The notes: a model not told the origin generated them from the sequence alone. Shown: positions 6,912-43,782, counted from the first letter of the stretch. The stretch is 64,000 nucleotides of DNA from Acutalibacteraceae bacterium (GCA_045660965.1 JAZRES010000004.1:6396-70395), one strand, 5' to 3'. Numbers and translations: made by a program.

Positions 6912-6940
6912 ATGTGAGTGACTTGAAAAGTCCGTCCTAT

Positions 6941-7901: not shown

Positions 7902-7944
7902 CAGACAATGGATTTCACATCATTTCCAGAAAGAGGTGGCTTTT

Positions 7945-10146: not shown

Positions 10147-10175
10147 TTGACGAAACGATAGGTGTATGGTATATT
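10147..10175 (+). promoter_or_regulatory. Candidate sigma-A promoter for the first GH-A/CBM cassette
   Basis: TTGACG-17 nt-TATATT with an extended -10 TG, ~45 bp upstream of the ATG at 10219. Confidence 0.5.
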
Positions 10176-10218
10176 TTACTTAAGTATATATTTACGTATT
10201 AGAGAGGAAGTGCATAGA

Positions 10219-12126: not shown

Positions 12127-12139
12127 GGAGGGGTAGACA

Positions 12140-14695: not shown

Positions 14696-14698
14696 TGG

Positions 14699-14742
14699 AA
14701 AAACCCGGATGCCGAAAAATTGGTATCCGGGTTTTCTTTTTG
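14699..14742 (+). terminator. Rho-independent terminator
   Basis: aaacccggat-N14-atccgggtttt, then a T-rich tail. Confidence 0.8.
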
Positions 14743-14750
14743 TTGGCTCG

Positions 14751-14779
14751 TTGACAGAGTTTTTTTGCTATGTTATAAT
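14751..14779 (+). promoter_or_regulatory. Consensus sigma-A promoter
   Basis: TTGACA-17 nt-TATAAT, both hexamers perfect, ~48 bp upstream of the ATG at 14827. Confidence 0.65.
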
Positions 14780-14826
14780 ATACAATATGTGTGACAAAAC
14801 ATCACTAAGTGAAAATGAGGGATAGT

Positions 14827-17257: not shown

Positions 17258-17953
17258 TCAGCGGGTCAGACCCTCACGATAGAGGTGGGCATCGCTGGCG
17301 TGCTGCAGAATTTGGGGAATTACCACACCGTCGCCGTGGTGGTAGAACAGGATTTCAGTAGTGCCGGTCAAACCAATGTTAAAGCGGGGATAGAACACGT
17401 TATAGGGGATGTCCATCACACTGCTGAGGAAGGCCAGACCGAAGCCGTAGTGGGCAAACAGCGCCACACGATTGGGGTTTTTATCAATGATGTGATAGCA
17501 GGCATTTTCTCGGTCGTGGCGCAGACCCAATTGCTCCATAAAGGCGTCAACAGCGGCGTCTACACGCTTAACACCACGCTCAAAGTTGGTGTCGGCAAAA
17601 TAGGGGTGGGTGTACCACTCACGACCCAACTTGCGCACCTCGGGAGAGTTGAGTTTTTTCACCATATCCGGCACTTCCAGAATCCACTGATCCTTGCCCT
17701 CGCTGTCCTTGGCCTTGAAATCGTCAAAGGCGTACATTTCGTGTGCCCAATCGCAGATGATGGGCTCTTTCTGTAGCAGATCACAGGTGGGCTGGGCGGT
17801 CTGGATGGCACGGGTGGAAGAAGAGGCGTACACCGCATCCAAGCCGTTAAGCAAAAAGCGTTTAGACAGGGCTTTTGCCTGTTCGTGACCCAGGGGGGTC
17901 AGGCTGTCCGGATCGTAGATGGGCTGACCGTGGCGGACAAAAAATAATCTCAC
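17258..17953 (-). CDS. Histidine phosphatase superfamily protein (phosphoglycerate-mutase-like), paralog A
   Basis: N-terminal catalytic RHG motif (FFVRHGQPIY), LTPLGHEQA, and a second His in LFAHYG. ~40% identical by eye to 33626-34354. Confidence 0.85.
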   Translation of the reverse strand: MRLFFVRHGQPIYDPDSLTPLGHEQAKALSKRFLLNGLDAVYASSSTRAIQTAQPTCDLLQKEPIICDWAHEMYAFDDFKAKDSEGKDQWILEVPDMVKKLNSPEVRKLGREWYTHPYFADTNFERGVKRVDAAVDAFMEQLGLRHDRENACYHIIDKNPNRVALFAHYGFGLAFLSSVMDIPYNVFYPRFNIGLTGTTEILFYHHGDGVVIPQILQHASDAHLYREGLTR

Positions 17954-18254: not shown

Positions 18255-21166
<2,912 letters not shown>

Positions 21167-21248
21167 GACTCCCACTAATTTCTTTATTATTCTATTAGTA
21201 TATGACCTGCTGCGACAGCAAAATTTCTAAGAAAGAGAGATGTAGACC

Positions 21249-24164
21249 ATGAGACGCTTTGGAACAGCCTTGTGTGTGGTTGCCCTGTTGTGTCAGTCCC
21301 TGCTGGTTTTCCCGGTGGCTGCAGAGCCGGCCGCCGACAGCACGTTGACTACCGGCGCAGCGCAGACCACCGCGACCGTGACGACGGCGGACAACGATTA
21401 CAACGCATACATCGAGAGTATGCCCAATAACCTGGGTACCCAGGCTATTACTCTGGGTGTTGCAGACGCCACCTTGAATGCCGGCGTTAAGAAGAAAAAA
21501 GACGCCGTTTTGATGAGTGACAACGGCGCTGTCACCTGGAAGGCAGAGATTCCTGCCGCCGGTTGGTACACTGTATCCTACACCTACTCCGGTGTAGAGG
21601 GTACTTCCGGTGCCGATATCGAATTGGGCCTGAAAGTGGATGGCAAATACCCTTATGCCGAGGCAGAGCGCTTTGTACTGCCCCGTATCTGGGTTAACGA
21701 CGGTGGTTTCCGTCAGGACTCCAACGGCAACCAGTTTGCCCCGGAGCAGAAAGAGCATTATGAGGCTCGCAAATATCCTATGCGCGACGTTAACGGCTTC
21801 ACCAGTGAGGACCTGCGTGTATACCTGACCGCCGGTACCCACACCCTGAAGGTTGAGACCTTTGGTGAGGACCTGTTGCTGTATGCCCTGCACCTGGACG
21901 TGCCCGTAGTTCTTCCCACCCTGGAGGAGAAGAAGGCCGAGTGGGAGTCTAAGGGCCTGTATTACACCGGCGATGAGATCGTGGTGGAAGTTGAGGGCGT
22001 GGATGTAAACATTGAGAAGAGCGACCGCTCCATCATTGGTCAGTCCGACAACAGCACCCCCGGCGTTCTGCCTCCCAACGGCAAGGCCGACGCTTTCATT
22101 CAGCAGGTGAACTACATCGGCGGTGCCAACTGGTCCCTGCCGGATGAGACCATCACCTGGAAGGTGATTGCTCCCAAGGCTGGCGTATATAAGGTGGGTA
22201 TGCATTTCCGTCAGAACTACCTGATCAACGCTACCTCTTACCGTAGCATTAAGGTTAATGGTCAGCATCAGTATATCGAGCAGACCAGTCTGGCTTTTGA
22301 TTATAAGAACAGCTGGCAGTTCGGTGACAAGTTCGCCAACGGCCAGGAGCTGTTGGTTGAGCTGAACGAGGGCGAGAACATCATCAGCCTGGCCGTTACT
22401 CTGGGCGAGATGAACCAGTTCAGCGCCAAAATGGAGAGCCTGATTCTCCGCTTGGGTCAGATGTATCGTGAGATTATCGCCATCACCGGTGAGACTCCCG
22501 ATGCCGGCCGTGACTACGACCTGTTCACCCGCATTCCCGATCTGGCCGATCGTATGAACGCTTTCTATGCCGAGATCGAGGGCATGATTGCTGAGCGTAC
22601 CGACGAGAATGGCGACATCGACGACATTGCCGCACTTCTGAAGAAGATGAATGTGGTTCTGGATAAGATGGTAACCAAGGGTTACGAGGCTCAGAAGTAT
22701 AAAGGTAACTATTACGATAACTATTCCGGTCTGAGTGCCCAGCTGCAGGATATGAAGAATATGGCTCTGGACATCGACTGTATGGTCTTCGCCGCTCCTG
22801 AAAAAGAGTACGTCCGCAATGGCGGTACCTTCTGGGAGAAGACCTGGTTCGGCATCGAGCGTTTCATCGCTTCCTTCCTGCTGGACTACAACACCGCTGC
22901 CGGTGTTGAGGGCGAGGACATCACCAAGCTGACCCTGTGGGTTAACTGGTCTCGTGACCAAACGCTGGTTCTGAACTCTCTGATTAACGGTCACTTCTCC
23001 AGCGAGAATCCCAACATCAGTGTTACCGTTCGTATGACCAACGCCTCTCTGTTGCAGGGTATTATGTCCGGCAACGGTCCCGACTGTAGCCTGTCCGACG
23101 CCCGTGTAACTCCCGTTAATATGGCTATGCGTGGCGCTCTGGTGGACCTGTCTCAGTTCCCCGACTACGAGGAGGTTTCCAAGTGGTTCGTAAAGGGTGC
23201 CGACGTACCCTATCGCTATGAGGGCGGTGTCTATGGCCTGCCTTCTACCCAGCAGTTCTATATGCTGTTCTACCGTACCGACATCTTCGAGCAGTATGGT
23301 CTGACCGTTCCCAACACCTGGGAAGAGTTCCTGGAGGTTGCCAGTATCCTGATGCTGAACAACATGCAGGTGGGTCTGCCCTACACCGAGCTGAAGGATA
23401 TCGGTTTGACCAACGGTGGTGTGGCTTCTCTGAACATTTTCCCCACTCTGCTGCTGCAGAAGGATCTGTCCCTGTATAACTCCACCAACACCGGTACTTC
23501 TTTCACCGAGGTTGACGTTATGCAGACCTTCGAGGATTGGACCGATTACTATACCAAGTATAACCTGCCTAAGGAATACAACTTCTTCAACCGTTTCCGT
23601 ATCGGTCTGGTGCCCATGGCTATCCAGTCCTACGGTCAGTACTCTGCTCTGTCCGCTGCTGCCCCTGAAATCAAGGGTAAGTGGGATATGGCTGAGATCC
23701 CCGGCACTCTGCGTGAGGATGGCACCATCGATCGCACCCAGGCCGGCTTCGGTAATGCCTGTATGATTCTGGAGCTGTCCGAGCACAAGGAAGAGGCTTG
23801 GGAGCTGCTGAAGTGGTGGATGCGCGAGGATACCCAGTACCGTTACGCTTTGGACATCGAGTCCATTCTGGGCGTTGCCGGTCGTTATACCTCTGCGAAT
23901 ATGGCCGCTACCCTGTCTCTGGACTGGGGTAAGGGTGCCAATAAGACTCTGGAGCGTCAGTGGAACAATGTGGAAGAGGTTGCCGAGATCCCCGGTGGCT
24001 ACTACGTTGCCCGTGCCGTTGACCAGGCTTTCTGGAACGTGCTGTCCATGAACGCCAACCCCAAGGATATGATGAAGAAGTGGGGCGAGGTTGCTGACGT
24101 GGAGATCACCACCAAGATCAATCAGTATAAAAAAGACGATGTAAAGGAGGGGGCTGACGAATGA
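21249..24164 (+). CDS. Giant extracellular ABC solute-binding protein with ~550-aa N-terminal extension containing two CBM6/35-like beta-sandwich regions
   Basis: Signal peptide. The N-terminal part contains AVTWKAEIPAAGWYTVSYTYSG and ETITWKVIAPKAGVYKVGMHFRQ (typical CBM6/35-style strands). The C-terminal ~415 aa (from TLWVNWSRDQ) looks like a family-1 sugar SBP. Confidence 0.75.
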   Translation: MRRFGTALCVVALLCQSLLVFPVAAEPAADSTLTTGAAQTTATVTTADNDYNAYIESMPNNLGTQAITLGVADATLNAGVKKKKDAVLMSDNGAVTWKAEIPAAGWYTVSYTYSGVEGTSGADIELGLKVDGKYPYAEAERFVLPRIWVNDGGFRQDSNGNQFAPEQKEHYEARKYPMRDVNGFTSEDLRVYLTAGTHTLKVETFGEDLLLYALHLDVPVVLPTLEEKKAEWESKGLYYTGDEIVVEVEGVDVNIEKSDRSIIGQSDNSTPGVLPPNGKADAFIQQVNYIGGANWSLPDETITWKVIAPKAGVYKVGMHFRQNYLINATSYRSIKVNGQHQYIEQTSLAFDYKNSWQFGDKFANGQELLVELNEGENIISLAVTLGEMNQFSAKMESLILRLGQMYREIIAITGETPDAGRDYDLFTRIPDLADRMNAFYAEIEGMIAERTDENGDIDDIAALLKKMNVVLDKMVTKGYEAQKYKGNYYDNYSGLSAQLQDMKNMALDIDCMVFAAPEKEYVRNGGTFWEKTWFGIERFIASFLLDYNTAAGVEGEDITKLTLWVNWSRDQTLVLNSLINGHFSSENPNISVTVRMTNASLLQGIMSGNGPDCSLSDARVTPVNMAMRGALVDLSQFPDYEEVSKWFVKGADVPYRYEGGVYGLPSTQQFYMLFYRTDIFEQYGLTVPNTWEEFLEVASILMLNNMQVGLPYTELKDIGLTNGGVASLNIFPTLLLQKDLSLYNSTNTGTSFTEVDVMQTFEDWTDYYTKYNLPKEYNFFNRFRIGLVPMAIQSYGQYSALSAAAPEIKGKWDMAEIPGTLREDGTIDRTQAGFGNACMILELSEHKEEAWELLKWWMREDTQYRYALDIESILGVAGRYTSANMAATLSLDWGKGANKTLERQWNNVEEVAEIPGGYYVARAVDQAFWNVLSMNANPKDMMKKWGEVADVEITTKINQYKKDDVKEGADE

Positions 24165-25090
24165 GCACAAAAGTAGATGCAAAGGGTCGTCTGAAGCAGA
24201 AAAAGGTATCTTTTTCTCAGGACGCATTGCGGACGCCTTATGTGGTGTTGCTGCTGCCCTTCCTGATTCTGTTCCTGGTATTTACTATTATTCCTATTGC
24301 TTACTCTGTGGTTCTGAGCTTCTTCGATTACGACGTAGTTAACACGCCTACCTTTACCGGCTTGGCCAACTACCTGAAGATGTTCGTTAACGACTACGAG
24401 TTCCCCATCGCTGTGGCCAACACACTGAAGTTTGCGTTGGTGACCGGTCCTATCAGCTTTGCCCTGGCTTTCTTGCTGGCATGGATGATCAACGAGTTCG
24501 GTCCCAAGACCCGCAGTGTGCTGTCCTTCCTGTTCTATTCTCCCGCTCTGGTGGGTAACGGTTACTTCATTTGGCAGATTATGTTCTCCGGTGATAGCTA
24601 CGGTTACATCAACAGTCTGTTGCTGTCCATGAACCTGATCACCGAGCCTGTCGTGTGGTTCCGTGATCCTACTTACGCATTCTGGATTGTTATGATCGTC
24701 CAGTTGTGGATGAGTATGGGTATCTCCTTCCTGGCAAACATCGCCGGTCTGAACAACGTGGACGAGGCGATGTACGAGGCGGGTGCCATCGACGGTATCC
24801 GCAACCGTTGGGCCGAGCTGTGGTACATCACCATTCCTTCTATGAAGAGCATTTTGCTGTTCTCGGCGGTTATGCAGGTGCAGTCCACCTTCTCTATCAG
24901 TGCGGTGGCTACCACTCTGACCGGCTTCCCCAGCGTTAACCACTCTACCGAAACGATTTTGACCCACATCACTGACGTTGGTACCATTCGTTTCGACATG
25001 GGTTATGCATCGGCTCTGTCGGTGTTCCTGTTTGCAATGATGATGATCGTCCGTCTAGGTCTGGGACGATTGTTAATAGATAAGGAATAA
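24161..25090 (+). CDS. Carbohydrate ABC transporter permease (MalF/LplB-like), pair 1
   Basis: 6 TM. EAA-type loop EAMYEAGAIDGIRNRWAELWYITIP. The ATGA start overlaps the SBP stop. Confidence 0.9.
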   Translation: MSTKVDAKGRLKQKKVSFSQDALRTPYVVLLLPFLILFLVFTIIPIAYSVVLSFFDYDVVNTPTFTGLANYLKMFVNDYEFPIAVANTLKFALVTGPISFALAFLLAWMINEFGPKTRSVLSFLFYSPALVGNGYFIWQIMFSGDSYGYINSLLLSMNLITEPVVWFRDPTYAFWIVMIVQLWMSMGISFLANIAGLNNVDEAMYEAGAIDGIRNRWAELWYITIPSMKSILLFSAVMQVQSTFSISAVATTLTGFPSVNHSTETILTHITDVGTIRFDMGYASALSVFLFAMMMIVRLGLGRLLIDKE

Positions 25091-25105
25091 GGAGGGGAGA
25101 GCGTA

Positions 25106-25999
25106 ATGGAAAAACAGAAAAAATTGCGAATGAAAGTCGCTAAGAAAAAGAGTTACAAACGCTTTACCCGTTCTCGTGCAGCCAACGTCTTGTTTGTGTC
25201 TTTCCTGTTGTTGGCCGGCTTGTTCATGGTCTTGCCTCTGATTTACTCGGTGATGACCTCTTTCAAGCCTCTGGACGAGTTGATGGCCTTCCCGCCTAAG
25301 TTCTACGTGACTCGACCCACCCTGCAGAACTACTTGGTTCTGCCCAGTCTGCTGGATAACCTGCAGGTTCCCTTCTCTCGCTACGCTTTTAACAGCTTGT
25401 TTATCAGTGTGGCCATCACGGTGGGCCATATCATTATCGCCGGTATGGCATCCTTCTCTCTGTCTTTCTGCAAGAGCAAGTTCATCTCCGTGGTGTTCTG
25501 GTCTGTTCAGGTGGCTTTGTTGTTCAACGGCTATACCCTGGGTATTCCCCAGTATCTGATTTTCTCCAAGTTGGGCATTATCGATACATATTGGGTATAT
25601 ATCCTGCCGGCTCTGCAATCCACCACCGGTGTCTTCCTGATGAAGCAGTATATGGACGTCAGTATTCCTAAGGCTCTGATGGAAGCGGCGCTGTTGGATG
25701 GCGCCGGATACTACCGTATTTTCTGGCGTTTGGTGATGCCCCTGGTAAAACCGGCGTGGCTGACCCTGGCCCTGTTCGCATTCCGTGACGCTTGGGCAAT
25801 CCAGCCCAGCGGCACCATCTTCAGCGAAAGTCTGAAGACTTTGCCCGTTGCTATGAACCAGATTGCTGCCAGCGGTATCGCCCGTTCCGGTAGCGTGATG
25901 GCGGCTACGGTGCTGCTGATGATACCTCCGATTGCCGTTTATCTGGTTTCCCAGTCCAACGTTATGGAGACCATGAGCTCGGCCGGTATGAAGGATTAA
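25106..25999 (+). CDS. Carbohydrate ABC transporter permease (MalG/LplC-like), pair 1
   Basis: 6 TM. EAA loop EAALLDGAGYYRIFWRLVMPLVKP. Confidence 0.9.
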   Translation: MEKQKKLRMKVAKKKSYKRFTRSRAANVLFVSFLLLAGLFMVLPLIYSVMTSFKPLDELMAFPPKFYVTRPTLQNYLVLPSLLDNLQVPFSRYAFNSLFISVAITVGHIIIAGMASFSLSFCKSKFISVVFWSVQVALLFNGYTLGIPQYLIFSKLGIIDTYWVYILPALQSTTGVFLMKQYMDVSIPKALMEAALLDGAGYYRIFWRLVMPLVKPAWLTLALFAFRDAWAIQPSGTIFSESLKTLPVAMNQIAASGIARSGSVMAATVLLMIPPIAVYLVSQSNVMETMSSAGMKD

Positions 26000-26040
26000 A
26001 ATATGAGTAGTATGATACGAATTGAAAGGGGGATTGCAGG

Positions 26041-28248
26041 ATGATACTGAAAAACATCAAAAAGCCTGCCAAGATGGCATGGCGCATCCTTGCCTTGACC
26101 ATGGCACTGCTGATGCTGTGCGGTATGGTTGCTTCGGCAGCGGATGTTGAGGATGTTCCGTATTATTCCTATACGTATTGGGAAGGTCCCAGCCGTTTTG
26201 AGGCTGTTCCCATGCGTCCTATGTATGAGGCAGAAGCCCAGATTACCGGTGACTCTCTGGGCATCGAAGCTATGAATGATCCGACCCACGTGTGTTTGTC
26301 TAAGGATGGTAAGACTCTGTTCATTTTGGATGGTGGCAATAGCCGCATCCTGGCTGTGAACACCGACGACTTCACCCTGAACACCAACTACGGTAAGGGC
26401 GGTATCATTGGTCAGATCGAGTCCGCCGACGGCGCTCTGGATTACACCAAGGCTACCGGCGTGTACGTGTCTGACGACAACAAGATTTACATTGCTGACA
26501 CCGAAAACTACCGTTTGCTGATTACCGATGCATCCGGTAAGTTGATCCACACCCTCACCAAGCCCACCGACATCGGTGTGCCGGAGGATCTGGAGTTTAT
26601 GCCTTCCCGTATTATGATGGATAGCAAGGGCTATCTGTACGTGGTGGCTAAGGCATGCTACTATGGTATGCTGGTGTACGATAAGGATTACAATTTCATG
26701 GGCTTCCACGGCTCTTATAAGGTTGAGCAGAACGTGATGGACACGGTTAAAGAGTGGGTCACCAGTCTGTTTATGACCAACGAGAAGAACGCCGTATCCC
26801 AGAAGAAACTGCCTGCCGAAATCGTGGATATCGCCATCGATTCTGACGGTATGCTGTACACCCTGTCTTCTGCCAACTATGGCCAGATCAAGCGTCTGGG
26901 CCTGAGTGGTAGCCAGACCCTGAACTATAAGTTCGGTTTCTCCAACAGCAGCGGTGACCTGACCAACTTCGGTGAGACTCCCGCCGCTTATTGGCACAAG
27001 CACTATCAGTACATTCAGAGCTTGCAGGGCATTGCTCTGGATCCTGAAGGCTTTATCTATTCCATTGATAAGGTACGTGGTCGTGTCTTTATGTACGACG
27101 AAGAGTGCCGTGTTATCAGCGTGTTCGGTACCGGTTTCGGCGGTGGTGACCAGGTTGGTACCTTTACCACTCCCGAGGCTGTTGCTACCAGCAGCGACTC
27201 TCTGTACGTGCTGGACTTCGCCGCTAAGAACGTGACCGTATTCAAACTGACTGAGTATGGTAAGCTGTTCAAAGAGGCCGATATCCTCACCATGGCCGGC
27301 GAATACAGCCAGGCCCAGCCCATTTGGGAACAGGTTCTGAAGCTGGATGAGAACAATCAGCGTGCCTACGAGGGTATTGCTAAGTCCCTGTTGGCTCAGG
27401 CCAACGCCGCTAAGTCTGCCGGCGATATGGATACCGCTCTGGAGCTGTACAGAGACACCATGGAGTACGCCGAGCAGGGTAATGACCAGCAGACCTACTC
27501 TCAGGCTTATGAGGTTATCCAGAAGGATTGGATCAGCGTCAACTTCTGGTGGATCTTCTTGCTGTGCTTGGCAGCTGTTGGCGGTATCGCCGCTCTGCTG
27601 GTGCTGTCCAAGAAGCGCAAGATCTTTGAGATCAAGAACGAGAAGCTGAGAACGGCTCTGTCCGTGCCGCTGCATCCCTTCCAGGCATTCCAGTCCCTGC
27701 GTTATCAAAAGACCGGTTCTATCCGTCTGGCCATCCTGTTTATCGTGCTGTTCTATCTGAGCAGCGTATCCGAGGACCTGTACGGCGGCTTTATGTACGT
27801 GCTGACCGACACCTCTACTTACAATGCGCTGTTCACCCTGATCGGCACAGTGGGTGTGCTGCTCCTGTGGGTTATCGTTAACTGGGGCATCTGCATCCTG
27901 AATGAAGGTAAGGGTTCTCTGAAGGACATCTTCTGTATGTCTGCATACAGTATGGCTCCCATGATCATTTACTCGGTCATCTTCACGGCGGCATCTCACT
28001 TGATTCCCGCTACCGACACCTCCACCTTCACCATCATTAGCGCCATTATGGCTATCTACACCGTGCTGTTGCTGCTCATTGGTATGACGGTTGTACACGA
28101 GTACACCTTCTTCAAGGCCATGGGTATGGCAGTGCTGTGCGTGGCTTGTATGTTGTTGGCCGCTTTTGTTATCTTCTCGGTGGTTCTGTTGAGCCAGCAG
28201 TTCATTTTCTTCATCGTCGGCGTTGTCGACGAGTTGATGTTACGCTAA
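26041..28248 (+). CDS. Membrane protein: signal/anchor + six NHL-like beta-propeller repeats + TPR segment + C-terminal Yip1-like multi-TM domain
   Basis: Six units of the type LFILDGGNSRILAV / IYIADTENYRLLITD / LYVVAKACYYGMLVYD / LYTLSSANYGQIKRL / IYSIDKVRGRVFMYD / LYVLDFAAKNVTVFK. These are followed by a helical TPR-like stretch (AGEYSQAQPIWEQVLKLDENNQRAYEGIA...) and then ~6 TM helices. Confidence 0.65.
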   Translation: MILKNIKKPAKMAWRILALTMALLMLCGMVASAADVEDVPYYSYTYWEGPSRFEAVPMRPMYEAEAQITGDSLGIEAMNDPTHVCLSKDGKTLFILDGGNSRILAVNTDDFTLNTNYGKGGIIGQIESADGALDYTKATGVYVSDDNKIYIADTENYRLLITDASGKLIHTLTKPTDIGVPEDLEFMPSRIMMDSKGYLYVVAKACYYGMLVYDKDYNFMGFHGSYKVEQNVMDTVKEWVTSLFMTNEKNAVSQKKLPAEIVDIAIDSDGMLYTLSSANYGQIKRLGLSGSQTLNYKFGFSNSSGDLTNFGETPAAYWHKHYQYIQSLQGIALDPEGFIYSIDKVRGRVFMYDEECRVISVFGTGFGGGDQVGTFTTPEAVATSSDSLYVLDFAAKNVTVFKLTEYGKLFKEADILTMAGEYSQAQPIWEQVLKLDENNQRAYEGIAKSLLAQANAAKSAGDMDTALELYRDTMEYAEQGNDQQTYSQAYEVIQKDWISVNFWWIFLLCLAAVGGIAALLVLSKKRKIFEIKNEKLRTALSVPLHPFQAFQSLRYQKTGSIRLAILFIVLFYLSSVSEDLYGGFMYVLTDTSTYNALFTLIGTVGVLLLWVIVNWGICILNEGKGSLKDIFCMSAYSMAPMIIYSVIFTAASHLIPATDTSTFTIISAIMAIYTVLLLLIGMTVVHEYTFFKAMGMAVLCVACMLLAAFVIFSVVLLSQQFIFFIVGVVDELMLR

Positions 28249-28269
28249 TCGGCAAAGAAAGGAGAGCGA

Positions 28270-30528
28270 ATGTTTATGTTTAAACGTAGAACAGTTTGTC
28301 TGTGCTTAGCGCTGTTGCTCTTATTGCCGATGGTGTTAACCGGATGCAGTAATGCAGTAGCCAAAGTCACTTTGGACTATACCGGCGAGTTTGACCCCGC
28401 TGTGCGCTATTATGGCCCCAACGGCGACGGTGTCATCGCTGAAAACAACAATTTCCGGCTGTTGTGGGACGACGGTGCCCAGTGCGCTCTGTTGTTTGAT
28501 AAGGTAAACAACAAGTGGTACGGCACCACTCCCTACGACTATTATGCGGCTATGCCGGATAACTATTATGCAGATTCTCAGATGTACGCTCCCATTTCGG
28601 TCAGCTATGTTAAGACCGATGAGGATACCAACGTCAAGAACGTTGCCTATGTGAGCGGCTATGAGGATGCTATCACCGATGGCTCTGTTGTCAGCGAGGC
28701 CATCGAAAACGGTGTCCGCATCACCTATTATTTCACTGACGTTGAGATTGCGGTTTCTCTGGAGTTGACTCTGACCGAGTCCGGTATCCGTGCCAACATC
28801 CCCATGGACCGCATTCAGGAGAACAAGAATAAGGTGTTTGAGATTTCCGTGCTGCCCTATGCTGCAGCCGCTACCCTCGATACCGATTCTTATCTGATGG
28901 TTCCCTCCGGCGGTGGCGCCTTGATCAACGCCAAGACCTTGGCCGAAGCCAAGTCCTACAAAGAGGCTGTGTACGGCAGAGACCTGTCCGAGCCGGTCAC
29001 CATGCTGAAAGAGGACTACGACCAGGCTTATCTGCCGGTGTTTGGCGCTAAGGACCGTGACAACGGTATGCTGGGTATCATCACCCAGGGTGCTTCCTGC
29101 GCTTACATCAACGCTACCACCGGTGATTACGAGATCGGTTATGCTGCCGCTTACGCTTCCTTCCGCATCCGTGGTGAGGAAGAGATTCTGTACGATAACG
29201 CACAGAGCCAGCAGGAGAACGTATCCACCACTTACAGCGACCAGATTGTAAATTACAAGGAGCTGTCTGTGGAGTATATGCCTCTGACCGGCGACGTTAC
29301 CTACGTAGGTATGGCTAACCGCTATCGTCAGCATCTCCAGGCTAACGGTTATCTGCAGGAGCGTCCCGAGAACGTTCCCGCTCTGTCCGTCAACTTCCTG
29401 GGTGCTACCCAGACTAAGAAGTCTTTCTTCGGTATCCCTTATGAGAACGATACCGCTACCACCACCCTGAAGCAGACCAAGGCCATCACCGAGGAGCTGA
29501 AGGCACTGGTAGGGGAGGACACTCTGCTGATTAACCTGCTGGGTTATGGTCAGGGCGGTCTGGCCAACACCACTGTGGGCGGCGGCTTTAAGCTGTCCGG
29601 CAAGGTTGGCAGCAAGAAAGATTGGAATGCTCTGCGTGAGTATACCGCTGCCAATAACGTGGTTATGGCTCTGGACTTCGAACTGGCTAAGTTCCAGAAG
29701 GGTGGCAACGGCTTTACCGTGAACAATGCCGCTTCTCTCAGCTTGTCCAAGCTGGACGCTAAGCTGAAGAACTACGTACTGAACACCGCTGTTGAAGAAG
29801 AGGACGGCAACGTTTGGTACCTGCTGGCTCGTGGCCGTCTGGCCGAGGCCGTCAGCAAGGCTATTGCTTCTGCTAAAAAGCAGAATGCCACCGCCATCTC
29901 TCTGGGTTCTCTGAGCAATATTTCCTATTCCGATTATCGCAAGAAGGCTACCTATGCTTCTATGTCGGATATGGATACCGACGTGGCTAACGCTCTGATC
30001 CAGTGCGATCAGAACGGTCTGACCGTAGTGGCTAACAAGGCTAACGATTATGCAGCCCTGAATGCCGACTACATCACCGAGATTCCCATGTCTTCTTCCA
30101 AGCAGGCTATCCTGAGCAAGGAGATTCCCTTCTATGCGCTGGTGTTCCAGGGCTATAAGAGTATGACCTCTATCGCCATCAACACCGCCGCTAACACCCG
30201 CAACGCCTATCTGCAGGCTGTGGCCACCGGTCTGACCCTGCAGTTTACCCTGTGCGATACCACCCACGATTCTGTGCAGTTTGAACAGGATACCGCTTAC
30301 ATCACCAGCCGTTATTCCGCTTGGAAAAACGATATCGCTACTATGGTGAATGAGAGCGCTGACCTGCACAAGAAGGTGGGTAACCAGGCCATCGTTCAGT
30401 ACACGGAGGAGAATGGCGTTTCCACCACCGTGTTTGAGAATGGCGTGACCGTTTACGTTAACTACACCAACAAAGCCGTGCGTTGCCCCTTGGGCGAGAT
30501 TCCCGCACAGAGCTTTGTATACGGCTGA
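28270..30528 (+). CDS. Large lipoprotein of unknown function (DUF5696-like from memory, unverified)
   Basis: Lipobox VLTGCSN. 752 aa with no motif I can assign. It sits between the two permease pairs. Confidence 0.6.
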   Translation: MFMFKRRTVCLCLALLLLLPMVLTGCSNAVAKVTLDYTGEFDPAVRYYGPNGDGVIAENNNFRLLWDDGAQCALLFDKVNNKWYGTTPYDYYAAMPDNYYADSQMYAPISVSYVKTDEDTNVKNVAYVSGYEDAITDGSVVSEAIENGVRITYYFTDVEIAVSLELTLTESGIRANIPMDRIQENKNKVFEISVLPYAAAATLDTDSYLMVPSGGGALINAKTLAEAKSYKEAVYGRDLSEPVTMLKEDYDQAYLPVFGAKDRDNGMLGIITQGASCAYINATTGDYEIGYAAAYASFRIRGEEEILYDNAQSQQENVSTTYSDQIVNYKELSVEYMPLTGDVTYVGMANRYRQHLQANGYLQERPENVPALSVNFLGATQTKKSFFGIPYENDTATTTLKQTKAITEELKALVGEDTLLINLLGYGQGGLANTTVGGGFKLSGKVGSKKDWNALREYTAANNVVMALDFELAKFQKGGNGFTVNNAASLSLSKLDAKLKNYVLNTAVEEEDGNVWYLLARGRLAEAVSKAIASAKKQNATAISLGSLSNISYSDYRKKATYASMSDMDTDVANALIQCDQNGLTVVANKANDYAALNADYITEIPMSSSKQAILSKEIPFYALVFQGYKSMTSIAINTAANTRNAYLQAVATGLTLQFTLCDTTHDSVQFEQDTAYITSRYSAWKNDIATMVNESADLHKKVGNQAIVQYTEENGVSTTVFENGVTVYVNYTNKAVRCPLGEIPAQSFVYG

Positions 30529-30549
30529 TGAAAGGAGGATGATTACACC

Positions 30550-31440
30550 ATGAAAAAATCTTTAAGAGACTTTAGTCAAAGAAAAAGAATGTACGGCCGG
30601 TTGTTCATCCTGCCTTGGGAGATTGGTTTTGTTATCTTCTTTATGATCCCCCTGATTCAGTCGCTGACCTTCGTATTCTCTAAGGTAGATATCGGTGAAT
30701 TCAACTTCGATACCACCTGGGTCGGTTTTGATAACCTGTATCGTATTTTCTTCGTCAACTCCAAGTTTGTTGACAACCTGATCGAGTCCTTGACTTCGTT
30801 CACCTATTCCATTCCTCTGGTTGTGGCACTGAGCTTGATCGTGGGCGTATTGCTGAACCAGAAGTTTAAAGGAAGAATTGTGTTCCGTTCCATTTTCTTC
30901 CTGCCGGTTATCGTGGCTACCGGTGTGGTTATGACCTACATCCAGGGCGACGCTTCTGCTGCCAGCATGCGTGGTGGCGCAGAGATGGCCGGTAGCGGTG
31001 TGGATGTTACCGCCATTCTGGAGGGTATGCACCTGTCCACTGAGATTACCGAGTTCTTGGTTGGCTTCGTTAACCAGATCTTCGACCTGTTCTGGGATTG
31101 CGGTGTGCAGATCGTTCTGTTCATTTCCGGTCTGCAGTCCATCCCCGAGCAGCTGTACGAGGTTTGCCGTGTTGAGGGCGCTAACAAGTGGGAAGAGTTC
31201 TGGTATGTTACCTTCCCCATGCTGAGCGGTACCACCATTCTGGTTATGATTTTCACAGCAATTGAGATTTTCACGGATTCCACCAACCTGGTTATCAACC
31301 AGGGTTACGCCGCTATGAAGCAGAACCTCTACGATGAGAGTTCCGCTATGTTGTGGGTGTACTTCGCTCTGGTTGGTTTGATTCTGGGCGTGGCTGTTCT
31401 GCTGCTGCAGAAGTTCGTGTTCTCGAAGTGGTCTACTTGA
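30550..31440 (+). CDS. Carbohydrate ABC transporter permease, pair 2 (MalF-like)
   Basis: 6 TM. EAA-like loop EQLYEVCRVEGANKWEEFWYVTFP. Confidence 0.85.
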   Translation: MKKSLRDFSQRKRMYGRLFILPWEIGFVIFFMIPLIQSLTFVFSKVDIGEFNFDTTWVGFDNLYRIFFVNSKFVDNLIESLTSFTYSIPLVVALSLIVGVLLNQKFKGRIVFRSIFFLPVIVATGVVMTYIQGDASAASMRGGAEMAGSGVDVTAILEGMHLSTEITEFLVGFVNQIFDLFWDCGVQIVLFISGLQSIPEQLYEVCRVEGANKWEEFWYVTFPMLSGTTILVMIFTAIEIFTDSTNLVINQGYAAMKQNLYDESSAMLWVYFALVGLILGVAVLLLQKFVFSKWST

Positions 31441-31455
31441 GAGAGGTGATGAAGA

Positions 31456-32442
31456 ATGTTTAAGAATAAAACTGAAGCCGAAAAAGCCCAGTCTATCCTG
31501 CTGATGAAAAAGCGGGGTCTGAACATTGTTATCTCCTTTGTTCGGTACTTCTTCTTGCTGGCACTGAGTTACGTGGTTCTTTTCCAGCTGATTTATATGA
31601 TCAGCTACTCTGTCCGTCCCGCAGTGGACGAGTTCAACCCCAGCGTTGTATGGATTCCTTCTCAGTTTACGTCTGCGAACTTCGACATCGCTTGGACTTC
31701 TCTGGATTATCTGAACGCCGGCTGGAACTCTGTATGGATCATGCTGGTCAGCGCCTTGATCGAGGTGTTTACCTGCGCTGTGGTCGCTTACGGTTTTGCC
31801 CGTTTCGAGTTTAGAGAGAAGAACATTCTGTTCTTCCTGGTGCTCATCACCATCATGGTGCCCACCCAGATGCTGATCATCCCCATGTTCCTGAACTATT
31901 CTCACTTTGATATTCTGAGCATTGGTGATGGCATCCGTCAGCTGACCGCATCCTTTGGTTGGAACGAGGGCCTGGGTATCGACCTGCGTCCGATGCTGCT
32001 GAATACCGCGGCTACCTTCTATCTGCCTTCTCTGTTTGCAGTGGGTATCCGTTCCGGTTTGTTCATCTTCATCTATCGTAAGTTCTTTGAGGGTCTGCCC
32101 CGTGAGTTGGAAGAGGCTGCCTACGTGGACGGTGCCGGTCCTTTCCGCACCTTCCTGTCGGTTATCCTGCCTTCCTCCGGCGTAGTATTCCTGACCGTTA
32201 CCATTTTCTCCTGCATTTGGCACTGGAATGAGAGCTATCAGGCCGGTATGTATCTGCAGGGCAATCCCACTCTGGCGGTTATGCTGGAGCGCTTCTCCGA
32301 TTCCGCAAAGAACAATGGCGGTGACACCCGTATGGCTCGTATGGCAGCCTGCTTGCTGTTCATCGCTCCCATGATGCTGTTGTACATGGTTCTGCAGCGT
32401 AAGTTCGTACAGAGCATCGATCGCGTCGGTATCGTTGGTTAA
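31456..32442 (+). CDS. Carbohydrate ABC transporter permease, pair 2 (MalG-like)
   Basis: 6 TM. EAA loop ELEEAAYVDGAGPFRTFLSVILP. Confidence 0.85.
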   Translation: MFKNKTEAEKAQSILLMKKRGLNIVISFVRYFFLLALSYVVLFQLIYMISYSVRPAVDEFNPSVVWIPSQFTSANFDIAWTSLDYLNAGWNSVWIMLVSALIEVFTCAVVAYGFARFEFREKNILFFLVLITIMVPTQMLIIPMFLNYSHFDILSIGDGIRQLTASFGWNEGLGIDLRPMLLNTAATFYLPSLFAVGIRSGLFIFIYRKFFEGLPRELEEAAYVDGAGPFRTFLSVILPSSGVVFLTVTIFSCIWHWNESYQAGMYLQGNPTLAVMLERFSDSAKNNGGDTRMARMAACLLFIAPMMLLYMVLQRKFVQSIDRVGIVG

Positions 32443-32483
32443 TTGTATTGGTTTTTAAAATAAACATATAAGGAGTAATTATT

Positions 32484-33470
32484 ATGGCTAAGATTATCAA
32501 TGGTGTTTCCTTGCCCAACATCCCCTGGCAGGATCGTCCTGAAGGCAGCAGCGACGTCGTATGGCGTTACGATGCCAACCCCATCATCAAGCGCAACCCC
32601 GCTAAAGGCTGCCAGCGTGTGTTCAACAGCGCTGTTGTGCCGTGGGGCGATGAGTTTATCGGTGTGTTCCGTGCCGATACCACCATCACCACCCCCAACC
32701 TGCACGTAGGCCACTCCAAGGATGGTATCAACTGGGAGATCGAGCCTGAGGCCATCGACTGGCGTGATGAGAACGGCGAGCCCTTCACCTCTATGTACTA
32801 CTACGATCCTCGTGTAACCTGGATTGAGGATGCTTACTACGTAATGTGGTGCACCGAGCAGGGTGGCCCCGTTCTGGGTCTGGGTAAGACCACCGACTTC
32901 AAGAACTTCACCCGTCTGCCCAACGTTACCCTGCCCTTCAACCGTAACGGTGTTCCCTTCCCCCGTAAGGTTAACGGCAAGTACCTGATGTTCAACCGTC
33001 CCTCTGACGATGGCCATACTCCTTTCGGTGACATTTGGCTGTCCGAGTCTCCCGACCTGGTATACTGGGGCAACCACAAGCACGTAATGGCTCGTGGCAC
33101 CAACATTTGGTGGGAGTCCACTAAGATCGGCGCCGGTAACGTTCCGATCGAGACCGACGAGGGCTGGCTGGTATTCTACCACGGCGTTATCAACACCTGT
33201 AATGGTTTCGTATACTCCTTCGGCGCTATGCTGTGCGAACTGGACGATCCCTCCAAGGTTATCTATCGCAGCCGTGAGTACCTGATCACTCCCGAGATGG
33301 ATTACGAGACCGTTGGCTTTGTTCCCAACGTTTGCTTCCCCTGCGCTTGCCTGGCTGATGCCGATACCGGTCGTATCGCCATCTACTACGGCGCTGCTGA
33401 TACTTATGTGGCTCTGGCCTTCACCACTTTGGATGAGGTTCTGGACTACCTGAAGAACAATCATCAGTAA
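32484..33470 (+). CDS. GH130 beta-mannoside phosphorylase/hydrolase family protein (cytoplasmic)
   Basis: 328 aa with GH130 hallmarks: VFNSAVVPW, YYYDPRVTW (catalytic DPR), NRNGVPFPRKVNGKY, IWLSESPDLVYWG, GWLVFYHGV. Confidence 0.9.
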   Translation: MAKIINGVSLPNIPWQDRPEGSSDVVWRYDANPIIKRNPAKGCQRVFNSAVVPWGDEFIGVFRADTTITTPNLHVGHSKDGINWEIEPEAIDWRDENGEPFTSMYYYDPRVTWIEDAYYVMWCTEQGGPVLGLGKTTDFKNFTRLPNVTLPFNRNGVPFPRKVNGKYLMFNRPSDDGHTPFGDIWLSESPDLVYWGNHKHVMARGTNIWWESTKIGAGNVPIETDEGWLVFYHGVINTCNGFVYSFGAMLCELDDPSKVIYRSREYLITPEMDYETVGFVPNVCFPCACLADADTGRIAIYYGAADTYVALAFTTLDEVLDYLKNNHQ

Positions 33471-33478
33471 TTTGCATT

Positions 33479-33510
33479 AAAAATGCCCCTGCTTCGGCAG
33501 GGGCATTTTT
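33479..33510 (+). terminator. Rho-independent terminator ending the GH2-ABC-GH130 operon
   Basis: aaaaatgcccctgc-ttcg-gcaggggcattttt. Confidence 0.88.
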
Positions 33511-33625
33511 GCATCCATTTTACGGAAATCGTGATATTTTACTATGACAAGGGTGGATTTTATAATGAAAACCCCCGATTCTTGCGGTATAATGATTCTA
33601 ATTACAAAGCAAGGAGGAACTCACA

Positions 33626-34354
33626 ATGATTTTCTTTTATGTTCGCCATGGTGACCCGATCTACAACCCCGACAGCCTGACCCCCTTGGGTGAGCGCCAG
33701 GCAGAGGCGGTGGCCAAGCGTCTGTGTATGCACGGCGTTAATAAGGTGTATGCTTCCACCTCCAATCGGGCGATTTTGACCGGTAAGCCCACCTGCGACA
33801 TTATGGGCAAAGAGCCGAAATTGTTGGAGTTCTGTAATGAGGCCAATATCGCCAAAGATTTTATGATAGGGGAGTGGCCTCATCCCGATCAGGACTGGGC
33901 CTGGAACCACAAGGACACCCGTAAATTGTTGCTGGACCCCGAGGTGGTGGCTATGGGGCACGACTGGTACAAGCACCCCAAACTGGCAGAATACACCTTC
34001 GAGCACGGCGTACAGGCTATGTACGAGGGCGTGGACGAGCTCTTTGCCGAATTGGGCTATGAGCACGACCGCTATACCGGTATTTACAAGCCGACACGGG
34101 ATAACGACGACCGTGTGGCGCTATTTGCCCACCAGGGCTGCAGCACCGTGTTTATGAGCTGTCTGCTGGATATCCCGTACCCCATTTTTGCCACTCGTTT
34201 CGATATGTGCCACAGCGCCTTTACCGCCATCGATTTCCACCCTGACCGCTATGGCAACGTGGTTCCTCGTGTAATGTCCCTGTCCAACGATTCCCACCTG
34301 TATCGTGAGGGCTTGCCTCTGCGCTACAACCACAACGATCGTTGCCGATTCTAA
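33626..34354 (+). CDS. Histidine phosphatase superfamily protein, paralog B
   Basis: FFYVRHGDPIYNPDSLTPLGERQA and LFAHQG. Paralog of 17258-17953, in the opposite orientation. Confidence 0.85.
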   Translation: MIFFYVRHGDPIYNPDSLTPLGERQAEAVAKRLCMHGVNKVYASTSNRAILTGKPTCDIMGKEPKLLEFCNEANIAKDFMIGEWPHPDQDWAWNHKDTRKLLLDPEVVAMGHDWYKHPKLAEYTFEHGVQAMYEGVDELFAELGYEHDRYTGIYKPTRDNDDRVALFAHQGCSTVFMSCLLDIPYPIFATRFDMCHSAFTAIDFHPDRYGNVVPRVMSLSNDSHLYREGLPLRYNHNDRCRF

Positions 34355-34362: not shown

Positions 34363-34397
34363 AAACAGCCGACCATTATGGTCGGCTGTTTTTTTAC
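34363..34397 (+). terminator. Rho-independent terminator
   Basis: aaacagccgacc-atta-tggtcggctgttttttt. Confidence 0.85.
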
Positions 34398-34680
34398 TTT
34401 CCGAGATGGTTTTTATATAAAATACAGAAATTTCAAAAAAACTTCATCATTTTTCAACTTTTTATATAAAAAAGGATTGCATTTTACAAAATCATTTGGT
34501 ATGATAACAATGTGTTGTATTATGGGCTGATAGAATACCCACATATCTGTGTTATCAAATCACGATACAACAGATACCGAGCTTTTGCCGCGGAAAAGGG
34601 CAAAAATCCCATAAGACAGCGGATGGCGCCTGCGGGTGGCCACCGCAAAAAATATCTTTTTGAGAGGAAGCGTGAAACAC

Positions 34681-36324
34681 ATGCGTAGAATCGCGAAAAA
34701 AGTTCTGTTGCCGGTTCTCTGTGCCGTGGCTCTGTTTGTCAGCGCCTTTGGTATGATGAGCATCGTCGGTACTGCCGCTGATGAGGCTAAGGCCACCGAG
34801 ATCCTGAACAAGTACGATGTCGACTCTTGGAACGGCACCATCCAGACCGGTAAGGCCAACGATGGCATCGTTACCGCCTGGGACATCCTGAAGGTGGACG
34901 GCTACATCGAGGGCGTTTGGCTGCCCTGGCTGACCCACTCTTGGTTGGGTAGCTCTCTGGCTGCTAACCCCGATATGGAGAATAACGATAGCTGGACTTT
35001 GGCCGATGGCACCACCAAGGACTATTGGCAGGTTATGACCCAGATCGGTATTGACAACTATAACAACACCCAGCTGGAGCAGGAGATCTTCAACCTGCGT
35101 GCTCTGGGCTACAATATGCTGGCTTATGCCGGTTCTCCCTGGGCCGAGGGTCGCGTTAACGACACCAACACTTGGGAGTGCACCGGTGTCCGTGACGATT
35201 ATCTGAAGAATATTCGTCGTCTGCTGGACATCTGCCGTAAGGTCAATATGCCTGTCTGCTGGTACATCCACTTCCACTCTTCCGCAGTGCCGGAGTACGC
35301 CAGCTTGGATATGCACTATCGTATCGACCAGGTTAAGGGCAACAAGGCTTATGCCGATTCCTATGCCGAGAACTTCGTTAAGCCCGTTATGCAGGTTCTG
35401 GGTGAGTACCGTGACGTGGTCGTGATGTGCGGTATCGCCGATGAGACCTTCAACGAGATCAACGACTCTGAGGCCGGCGACAAGTTCAAGGAGGGTTCTC
35501 GTGAGCAGTACGGTGTAACCCAGGAACTGTCCATGTACTTCCACGCTCAAATTGGTAAGATGGTCAAAGAGGTTCTGCCCGATATGCCCACTACCTGCGC
35601 CGACAACGCCGACCAGTACGCTATGTACGGCGATGCTATTCTGGATATGCCCGGTCGTAACCAGTATTCTTCCGGCACCAACCCCTCTTCCTCTGTTACT
35701 GAGGCTTGGGCTACCGGTCCTCTGCTGGCCGGCGAGTATGGTTTGGGTAACAGCACCCAGACCGAGGACGTTTGGGCCGAGACCATCACCGGTAAGCGTC
35801 AGAAGTATCTGGATGCCGGTTACAGTGGCTTCTTCCAGTGGGCTTACGAGCCTACCTTTAAGGCTAATGAGGGTCCCTCCGGTAACCAGATGACCAAGCA
35901 GGGCGCTACCACTCCCTACGATCTGCGTAAGGGTGCTTGGGAGGGCTACTATTGGGCCGAGACCAAGATGAATGCTCTGGGCGACAGCTCTAAGAACACC
36001 ACTGGTAAGCCCTCTGCTCTCTACTTCTGCGGTCAGTCTATGACCTATAACATCACCAATTCTTCCGGTACCAAGACCACCTCTACCACCAGCCTGAACG
36101 GTAAGGTCTATTGGATTCAGCCCAAGGGTGTGACCACCTACAAGGTAGAGCGTTCTGTCAATGGCGGTTCTTGGACTCAGGTTTCCGGTTCTGTTTCTAT
36201 CGATTCCAACACCGGTAGCTACCGTTACTGCATGACCGATCCCAGCCCTGTTACCAGTGGCACCGTGCAGTATCGTATCACTGTAAATAACAAGACTGAC
36301 TACACCAACGTGTGGACTTACTAA
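34681..36324 (+). CDS. Secreted clan GH-A (GH5-like) hydrolase + Fn3-like domain (cassette 2 enzyme)
   Basis: Signal peptide. Paralog of 10219/41698 (DGYIEGVWLPWLTHSWLG; acid/base ETFNEINDSE; nucleophile LLAGEYGLGN). C-terminal YKVERSVNGGSW...GTVQYRITV. Confidence 0.8.
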   Translation: MRRIAKKVLLPVLCAVALFVSAFGMMSIVGTAADEAKATEILNKYDVDSWNGTIQTGKANDGIVTAWDILKVDGYIEGVWLPWLTHSWLGSSLAANPDMENNDSWTLADGTTKDYWQVMTQIGIDNYNNTQLEQEIFNLRALGYNMLAYAGSPWAEGRVNDTNTWECTGVRDDYLKNIRRLLDICRKVNMPVCWYIHFHSSAVPEYASLDMHYRIDQVKGNKAYADSYAENFVKPVMQVLGEYRDVVVMCGIADETFNEINDSEAGDKFKEGSREQYGVTQELSMYFHAQIGKMVKEVLPDMPTTCADNADQYAMYGDAILDMPGRNQYSSGTNPSSSVTEAWATGPLLAGEYGLGNSTQTEDVWAETITGKRQKYLDAGYSGFFQWAYEPTFKANEGPSGNQMTKQGATTPYDLRKGAWEGYYWAETKMNALGDSSKNTTGKPSALYFCGQSMTYNITNSSGTKTTSTTSLNGKVYWIQPKGVTTYKVERSVNGGSWTQVSGSVSIDSNTGSYRYCMTDPSPVTSGTVQYRITVNNKTDYTNVWTY

Positions 36325-36344
36325 TTGAGAGGAGGAACTGAATT

Positions 36345-38647: not shown

Positions 38648-38684
38648 AAGGCGTTTGGGTATTTTTGTAAAAAGAGGTTTCGTT

Positions 38685-43767: not shown

Positions 43768-43782
43768 GGAGGTGGAGAGAAT

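Follow-up and report, generated by a model that had tools for sequence, protein, structure and literature searches.

A 64-kb stretch of DNA from an Acutalibacteraceae bacterium (64,000 nt, here called the window) carries an operon whose core, at positions 21249-32442 of the plus strand, encodes a giant solute-binding protein (SBP), a pair of ABC permeases (P1 and P2), a membrane protein with NHL, TPR and Yip1 regions (the Yip protein), a DUF5696 lipoprotein and a second pair of permeases (P3 and P4). Comparison with related loci showed that these seven genes are a fixed core, which is repeated within genomes and has variable cargo around it. With moderate confidence, we read this cassette as a deeply conserved module of monoderm Firmicutes for complex-glycan uptake, which would capture glycans at the cell surface, trim them and pass them to an import machine driven by a shared ATPase. 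More tentatively, we propose as possible, though on balance doubtful, that it represents an unrecognized and obligatorily multi-component class of glycan importers in monoderms, in which the Yip1 protein would couple two ABC importers, a receptor and a glycosidase of a new family, as a counterpart of the SusC/D core.

A fixed seven-gene core amid variable cargo

Related loci were collected with a profile of 32 DUF5696 homologs, which gave 237 confirmed sites in the species representatives of GTDB. The best 80 of these 237 sites were taken with 10-kb flanks, and their open reading frames (ORFs) were compared with the proteins of the window, which completes a set of 81 loci. All seven genes were present in 71 loci (70 related loci and the window), and each of the 10 incomplete loci is cut by a contig end. 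Every one of these 71 complete loci has the order SBP-P1-P2-NHL/TPR/Yip1-DUF5696-P3-P4 on one strand; neighboring genes are separated by median gaps of 2-14 nt, and such a recurring arrangement is far from chance. This order was kept down to approximately 30% identity of the DUF5696 protein, and also in more distant loci that were reached via homologs of the Yip protein at 25-27% identity. An earlier note on this DNA had argued that the Yip1 and DUF5696 genes work with the transporter, and that a lack of conserved linkage to ABC permeases would count against this idea; the linkage turned out to be present in every complete locus. The same note placed this neighborhood in Clostridia and Paenibacillus, and we indeed found the same gene order in gut Clostridia loci and in a cultured Paenibacillus.

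The closest species representatives are metagenome-assembled genomes of Acutalibacteraceae and 'Ruminococcus' from gut samples, at 74-80% identity. Among cultured bacteria, the cassette is present in Paenibacillus sp. JCM 10914 and, by membership of a 90% cluster, in Paenibacillus uliginis N3/975. Nine assemblies among the 80 related loci carry two to three cassette loci each. The cassette was not found in the literature that we searched, which covered DUF5696, PF18952, Yip1 with ABC transporters, polysaccharide utilization loci (PULs) of Acutalibacteraceae and glycoside hydrolase (GH) family 129, and neither DUF5696 (PF18952) nor the gene combination appeared there, in agreement with the statement in the earlier note that no described function was known to its author.

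The genes on either side of the cassette behave differently from the core. GH2 flanks it in 17 loci only and GH130 follows P4 in 14 loci only, and this flanking is limited to the 13-17 closest loci. In other loci, the flanks hold GH36, GH38, GH14/42-like or CBM_4_9 proteins (CBM, carbohydrate-binding module), large proteins without a Pfam match, and AraC or LacI regulators. An AraC regulator adjoins the cassette in 21 related loci; the nearest regulators in the window are AraC genes at 48702-49631 (minus strand) and 59473-60327 (plus strand), at least 15 kb from the cassette. In the window, GH2 and GH130 share a transcription unit with the permeases, which gives the locus the transporter and the GH of a Gram-positive PUL; such PULs also comprise a regulator.

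To compare the history of the components, a matrix of identities between all pairs of 70 complete loci was made for each of the seven proteins. These matrices correlate at 0.85-0.96 with each other, and thus the cassette is inherited as a unit. Mean pairwise identity was 60-62% for P1 and P2, 46-49% for P3 and P4, 43% for the giant SBP, 40% for the Yip protein and 34.5% for the DUF5696 protein, so that the outward-facing parts diverge fastest, as expected of substrate-specific parts. When the other five components were controlled for in partial Mantel tests, correlations were retained between the giant SBP and the Yip protein (0.45), P2 (0.44) and P1 (0.31), between the Yip protein and P3 (0.31) or the DUF5696 protein (0.29), and between the DUF5696 protein and P4 (0.22; permutation p = 0.001 for each), and those of the giant SBP with P3 and P4 were about 0. 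As a lead only, this pattern suggests that the giant SBP may serve P1/P2, and that the Yip protein may link this side of the cassette to a side made of the DUF5696 protein and P3/P4.

Components of the cassette and a proposed mechanism

The four permeases, core genes 2, 3, 6 and 7, are encoded on the plus strand at 24161-25090 (P1, MalF/GlcT-type), 25106-25999 (P2, MalG/UgpE-type), 30550-31440 (P3, MalF/UgpA-type) and 31456-32442 (P4, MalG/UgpE-type). Each matches BPD_transp_1; P1 and P2 lie under the Pfam gathering cut-off and are clear MalF/MalG-type proteins by NCBIfam. The EAA loop is canonical in P2 (EAALLDGAG) and P4 (EAAYVDGAG), EAA-like in P1 (YEAGAIDG) and a variant in P3 (EVCRVEGAN), and an EAA or EAA-like loop is kept in the orthologs of all four (74-80 each); therefore, both pairs should dock an ATPase. 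With its four MalF/MalG subunits in two F/G pairs and a class-I sugar-binding protein, the cassette has the membrane and binding-protein components of a CUT1 importer, which in addition needs a MalK/MsmX-type ATPase dimer. A recent duplication of the first pair as the source of the second was rejected, since P1 and P3 are 25% and P2 and P4 22% identical, and the pairs are therefore anciently diverged.

The earlier note had found no nucleotide-binding subunit in this operon, and this holds family-wide. In a motif test, as distinct from a profile search, no ORF with a Walker A motif and an ABC signature was found in the 64-kb window, and the same motif patterns gave no ABC ATPase in the 80 loci from the genome collection or in their 10-kb flanks. 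Firmicute CUT1 systems share an orphan ATPase, which is MsmX in Bacillus subtilis and MsmK in streptococci.

The giant SBP (971 aa; core gene 1, 21249-24164, plus strand) begins with a type-I signal peptide, and SBP_bac_1 matches only its residues 575-863. In an AlphaFold2 model (predicted local distance difference test, pLDDT, 84), two CBM6/35-like beta-sandwiches span residues ~60-217 and 244-384; they are followed by a helical bundle (386-545) and, at the C-terminal end, by a class-I SBP domain of the oligosaccharide-binding kind (556-965). In Foldseek, the matches went mainly to the SBP domain, with template modeling (TM) scores of 0.75-0.81 to SBPs for cycloisomalto-, manno- and sophoro-oligosaccharides, and a sequence search of the PDB also matched SBPs. 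The N-terminal sandwiches were named from weak Pfam matches across homologs, which in 35 homologs were to Golvesin_C (18), CBM_35 (6) and CBM_6 (3). Ordinary Gram-positive SBPs are lipid-anchored. A lipobox was found in just 6 of 74 giant SBP orthologs, so that in a monoderm cell the protein would remain at the surface either through a retained signal peptide or with the help of a partner. In one locus (L086), the gene at 3780-8183 encodes a 1,467-aa relative of the giant SBP that is joined to CBM_35 and to a GH26 domain of the mannanase family, and a permease comes next; such a fusion would combine receptor and enzyme in a single polypeptide.

The claim of the earlier note that there is one SBP applies to 21249-33470, and a second one lies beyond this region. 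SBP2 (517 aa; 40054-41607, plus strand) is a lipoprotein (lipobox MVGC), for which Pfam by itself gave no SBP match; it was recognized at 294 bits by a hidden Markov model (HMM) built from 40 downstream SBPs, and its PDB match is the Lmo0181 SBP (5e-07). It lies 7.6 kb past P4, at the same distance as in the four closest relatives with enough flank. An ordinary-size SBP (~490 aa, SBP_bac_8), orthologous to SBP2, directly follows P4 in 39 of 76 loci, and SBP2 is thus frequent and not obligatory. Residues ~30-110 of SBP2 form a low-complexity linker of ~80 aa that is rich in Thr, Glu, Ala and Ser, with TEA(T/S) repeats and a Thr run, and this linker may be a spacer with which the SBP can extend across the cell wall. 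Tandem SBP2 paralogs follow the cassette in two loci, three in L017 (14087-19389) and two in L074 (11158-14339), which suggests several alternative ligands for P3/P4. In Paenibacillus-type loci, the gene for an ordinary 460-aa SBP precedes that of the giant SBP and does not follow P4 (L081, 3760-5148; L084, 7840-9246), and the position of the second SBP is therefore lineage-specific.

The arrangement in which SBP2 directly follows P4 is a classical permease-permease-SBP unit that stands beside an SBP-permease-permease unit. Together with the low identity between the two permease pairs and the co-evolution of the giant SBP with P1/P2 and not with P3/P4, this is what would be expected if two independent CUT1 importers, SBP plus P1/P2 and P3/P4 plus SBP2, were merely co-transcribed, and the DUF5696 and Yip proteins were co-regulated cargo. 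We regard this explanation as unlikely. True cargo, such as GH2, GH130, GH36 and others, turns over completely between loci, whereas the Yip and DUF5696 genes are fixed between the two pairs throughout the complete loci, in Clostridia and Bacilli alike and with minimal gaps. Furthermore, the Yip protein co-evolves with the giant SBP, P3 and the DUF5696 protein beyond their shared history. From synteny and co-evolution, we infer that the Yip and DUF5696 proteins may work physically with the transporter.

The DUF5696 lipoprotein (752 aa; core gene 5, 28270-30528, plus strand) matches PF18952 over model positions 6-612 of 612, with 422.9 bits against a gathering cut-off of 25.6. Its lipobox, LTGC in the window copy, is present in 76 of 81 orthologs. 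An AlphaFold2 model made from an alignment (pLDDT 88, predicted TM score 0.89) has three domains, an N-terminal beta-sandwich, a (beta/alpha)8 barrel and a C-terminal beta-sandwich, which is the fold of GH129 enzymes. The best Foldseek match was the Zobellia 3,6-anhydro-D-galactosidase (GH129; 5opq/8rzk, E 7e-31), and the Bifidobacterium alpha-N-acetylgalactosaminidase NagBb (5wzp-5wzr) was matched at E 4e-25; TM scores to GH129 structures were 0.6-0.73 at 12-13% sequence identity, and GH101, GH36 and GH31 came next. The catalytic domains of GH129 and GH101 are similar (PMC8106489). When the PDB was searched with the single DUF5696 sequence, there was no match; the family profile gave the Zobellia enzyme (ZgGH129) at E 0.002 over three collinear segments, and NagBb at E 0.14.

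In 206 DUF5696 sequences, several acidic residues are conserved, some of them nearly invariantly: D555 in 204, D238 in 203 (Asp or Glu in 100%) and E184 in 195, with Asp or Glu in 96% at position 618 and in 85% at D600 (Asp in 170). Of these, D555, D600 and position 618 lie in the barrel. Conserved Tyr and Asn residues accompany them. By interpolation between the aligned segments, D555 would align with the Asp that is mutated in the Zobellia enzyme of entry 8rzk (D486N). Taken together with the model, these data indicate that the DUF5696 protein is probably a surface-anchored, active glycosidase of an unclassified, GH129-related family. The earlier note had called this DUF5696-like lipoprotein uncharacterized; its assignment to PF18952 stands, and yet the protein is not featureless, as it has a predicted, remotely GH129-like glycosidase fold. 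DUF5696 is a large family, which at 50% identity forms 5,741 clusters for E <= 0.001 and 3,542 for E <= 1e-30.

The DUF5696 gene directly precedes P3, from which a median of 2 nt separates it; this is where an SBP gene would be expected, and the DUF5696 product is lipid-anchored, as Gram-positive SBPs are. It is therefore conceivable that the protein is a non-enzymatic glycan-binding or delivery lipoprotein with a glycosidase fold, which serves as a surrogate SBP for P3/P4. This would explain the many loci without a second SBP, among them ~20 in which no SBP2 occurs within ~8 kb downstream, and the partial correlation between the DUF5696 protein and P4 fits it as well. However, the near-invariant acidic residues in or near the barrel (D555, D238, E184 and 618), with their Tyr and Asn companions, are typical of an active site, and we know of no glycosidase-fold protein that docks on a type-I ABC importer. 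We consider a surrogate SBP improbable, and retain the glycosidase reading.

The Yip protein (735 aa; core gene 4, 26041-28248, plus strand) combines an NHL region (Pfam, 8.7e-11), a weak TPR match and a C-terminal Yip1 domain (5e-16; PF04893, 59.5 bits against a cut-off of 28.6, residues 543-710), in which five hydrophobic segments follow an anchor helix. NHL propellers in the PDB match its NHL region. In its hydropathy profile, a signal peptide precedes six hydrophobic segments, which are the transmembrane anchor and the five of Yip1. The loop at residues 526-563, after the first hydrophobic segment, contains 8 Lys or Arg residues; this basic loop is therefore cytoplasmic, which places the NHL propeller and the TPR region outside the cell in the predicted topology. 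The loop carries a motif, HPFxxF, in which the His, the Pro and the last Phe are at least 95% conserved.

In Paenibacillus and in two other lineages (L084, L087 and L088), the Yip gene is split at this cytoplasmic loop. The first gene encodes an NHL/TPR protein of 482-490 aa with a C-terminal anchor and the next a separate Yip1 protein of 206-241 aa, and the two together take the place of the Yip gene in the cassette. A sequencing frameshift in Paenibacillus was rejected as the cause, because the two other lineages are split alike, with a proper C-terminal anchor and a proper start. This pattern of fusion and fission at one position in the cassette ties the ectodomain functionally to the Yip1 domain.

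A bacterial precedent for such a protein is the Yip1-family protein YknW, which modulates assembly of the ABC transporter YknXYZ (PMC4887032); in the literature that we found, there is no second case of a bacterial Yip1 protein that acts with an ABC transporter. We propose that the Yip protein is a hub or scaffold of the cassette. It might otherwise be a sensor or an enzyme, whose propeller would bind or convert the substrate, as in a lactonase, or would relay the presence of glycan across the membrane. Weak matches to SGL/gluconolactonase-type propellers, the annotation 'Gluconolactonase' on one Paenibacillus ortholog and the conserved HPFxxF motif in the cytoplasmic loop are consistent with this role. 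However, the SGL matches are far under threshold (18 against 26 bits), no signaling output domain is recognizable in the protein, and the AraC or LacI regulators are separate and variable. The TPR repeats point to protein-protein contacts and the YknW precedent to a role in assembly, and we consider a sensor or enzyme role improbable as well.

Altogether, the components suggest the following uptake mechanism. The CBM-bearing giant SBP would capture a glycan at the cell surface, where the DUF5696 lipoprotein would trim or cleave it, and the giant SBP would pass an oligosaccharide to P1/P2. A second product would enter by P3/P4, delivered by SBP2 where it is present, as it is here (40054-41607). 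The Yip1 protein would be a membrane hub that keeps the untethered receptor and the lipoprotein beside both channels, and a shared MsmX/MsmK-type ATPase encoded elsewhere would power both of them. In this copy, the GH2, the GH130 and an enzyme of the histidine-phosphatase family would finish the imported sugars in the cytoplasm. The N-termini of GH2 and GH130 were inspected and have no signal peptide, which makes these proteins cytoplasmic, and the histidine-phosphatase-family protein at 33626-34354 lacks one as well; these findings suggest cytoplasmic finishing of beta-galactoside or beta-mannoside oligosaccharides, and the imported substrate may be oligosaccharides that contain such units. 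A role in export or at the cell wall is unlikely because the subunits are those of an SBP-dependent type-I importer.

Several points weigh against this mechanism. Beyond composition and synteny, we infer the uptake machine from sequence. The partial Mantel test is liberal on related sequences, and longer proteins give less noisy identities. At E <= 0.01, Pfam gives DUF5696 alone for the lipoprotein, so that its sequence falls outside CAZy GH129; its candidate catalytic residues were assigned by conservation and approximate position, and two of the 206 sequences have Asn at position 555. For the loci that have 8 kb of downstream sequence and no SBP2 there, the mechanism does not account for the feeding of P3/P4. 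The signal peptide of the giant SBP is compatible with both cleavage and membrane anchoring. Finally, the proposed ATPase was not found in the search, which covered the window and the locus flanks.

The operon in the window and its surroundings

ORF calling with Pfam and NCBIfam gave nine tightly packed plus-strand ORFs between 18.3 and 33.5 kb, and the order GH2, SBP, two permeases, NHL/TPR/Yip1 protein, lipoprotein, two permeases and GH130, which had been read from the DNA in the earlier note, agreed with our analysis in coordinates, strand and domains. The likely operon promoter is a promoter-like site at 18255-18283 (plus strand; TTGCCA-17-TATTAT, 10 of 12 consensus matches), which is a consensus match only; it lies in a 350-nt AT-rich gap next to a divergent His_Phos gene. 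The first gene is the variable cargo gene for GH2 (18302-21166, plus strand), a LacZ-type beta-galactosidase-like protein with matches to Glyco_hydro_2_C (7.7e-76) and Bgal_small_N in Pfam, and to Bga2A in NCBIfam at 696 bits, under the cut-off of 999. The last is the other cargo gene, GH130 (32484-33470, plus strand), where the operon region ends; its beta-mannoside phosphorylase-like product matches Pfam at 1e-81 and NCBIfam under the cut-offs.

The ATGA overlap noted at 24161 is real: the SBP and P1 genes overlap at 24161-24164, with the ribosome-binding site AAGGAGG upstream of the overlap, and the remaining intergenic gaps in the operon are 15-82 nt. The transcription unit ends at an intrinsic terminator-like hairpin at 33478-33511 (plus strand; 15-bp stem with 7 G-C pairs, and a T-tail), the sole strong terminator downstream of the operon genes, as the note had indicated. 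An Rfam scan of the window found two tRNAs only and no operon leader RNA. Long minus-strand ORFs lie opposite almost every operon gene (21195-24227, 1,010 aa; 25996-28098; 28336-30369; 30562-32223; 32439-33464). They were rejected as genes, since a codon-usage model and all domain matches favor the plus strand, and they look like an artifact of codon bias.

Upstream of the operon, in a housekeeping context, are Spo0A (a response regulator with Spo0A_C, 836-1681) and two tRNA genes (6941-7154); since the window encodes Spo0A, the organism is a Firmicute with a chromosome of the spore-former type. Two paralogous histidine-phosphatase genes bracket the operon, at 17258-17953 (minus strand) and 33626-34354 (plus strand). 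The downstream one encodes a histidine-phosphatase-superfamily protein (Pfam His_Phos_1) and has a terminator of its own at 34363-34391. Its cluster has 13 members in 12 loci, of which 12 are encoded second after P4 and the 13th is the upstream paralog in the window. Since the downstream gene recurs behind GH130 in 12 related loci, its product may have a function connected with the sugar-1-phosphate that GH130 forms.

Just upstream of SBP2, inside the glycan locus, a gene at 38655-39545 (plus strand) encodes a protein of 296 aa with a partial Lgt (prolipoprotein diacylglyceryl transferase) domain (8.6e-10, model 96-239 of 240), which may be a dedicated Lgt paralog for the many lipoproteins of the locus. 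Large secreted or lipid-anchored proteins of 460-1,660 aa are encoded at 10162-16203, 34636-38573 and 41698-48585 (plus strand), and at 49813-59265 and 60402-63992 (minus strand). Most have up to seven CBM_4_9 repeats, MAM-like, DUF4886 or Metallophos domains and lack a recognizable catalytic GH domain, and a few have no Pfam match. Their relatives in clusters 0 and 2 adjoin the cassette in 22-37 other loci, and these large proteins may include unclassified glycan-degrading enzymes. One product, a 464-aa lipoprotein (14809-16203, plus strand; lipobox MVGC), has no Pfam match and only a faint one (16.8 bits) to the SBP2 HMM, and could be a very divergent binding protein.

Significance and relation to known systems

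How gut Firmicutes use glycans is far less well known than the Sus paradigm of Bacteroidota, and the loci of Firmicutes are hard to spot without a hallmark gene pair. The fixed core of seven genes might serve as one for a large group of mostly uncultured Oscillospirales of the gut and rumen, and, if our reading is correct, the cassette would be a genomic marker for glycan-utilization loci in uncultured Oscillospirales and in Paenibacillus. It would also place three things in a functional context for the first time: DUF5696, which is probably a new GH129-related glycosidase family, bacterial Yip1 proteins with ectodomains, and SBPs with carbohydrate-binding modules. Furthermore, it raises the mechanistic question of how one receptor and two channel pairs are organized without an operon-encoded ATPase, and the cultured Paenibacillus carriers open the cassette to genetic testing.

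The cassette shares with the CUT1 importers of Firmicutes that are powered by MsmX or MsmK, and that occur in Gram-positive PULs, its MalF/MalG pairs with EAA loops, a class-I oligosaccharide SBP, an operon without an ATPase, adjoining GHs and AraC/LacI regulators. Unlike these importers, it always has two permease pairs together, an SBP of ~970 aa that is not a lipoprotein and has CBM-like and helical domains, and obligatory NHL/TPR/Yip1 and DUF5696 genes in a fixed position. A Yip1-family membrane protein that is encoded with an ABC transporter is shared with YknWXYZ of Bacillus (PMC4887032). However, the Bacillus transporter, for whose assembly YknW is needed, is an exporter of the MacB type (YknYZ) that has an ATPase of its own and works with the membrane-fusion protein YknX; YknW lacks an NHL/TPR ectodomain, and neither a sugar-binding protein nor a glycosidase takes part. 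The cassette has MalF/MalG permeases, SBPs and a lipoprotein with a glycosidase fold, and no membrane-fusion protein, MacB-type permease or ATPase was found in it. The DUF5696 protein shares a predicted three-domain fold with the GH129 enzymes NagBb and Zobellia 3,6-anhydro-D-galactosidase, and differs from them in that it is lipid-anchored, is locked into a transporter cassette and is placed by Pfam in PF18952 and not in a GH family.

With the SusC/SusD PULs of Bacteroidota, the cassette shares a capture-and-import core that is repeated per genome amid changing enzymes and regulators, surface lipoproteins, a surface glycosidase (like SusG) that is here predicted, and outward parts that diverge fastest. 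In contrast to those systems, it has no TonB-dependent transporter, SusD fold or outer membrane, and would rely on ABC import across a single membrane; the Pfam matches of the window genes included neither SusC nor SusD. The two kinds of system are alike only in their logic, and not by descent. Altogether, the parts are already known (a CUT1 importer, a glycosidase fold, Yip1, NHL and TPR), and the cassette belongs among the Gram-positive, ABC-based glycan utilization loci. What is new, according to the literature that we found, is the obligatory combination of seven genes, with its dual channel pairs, its non-lipidated, CBM-bearing SBP and its proposed Yip1 hub.

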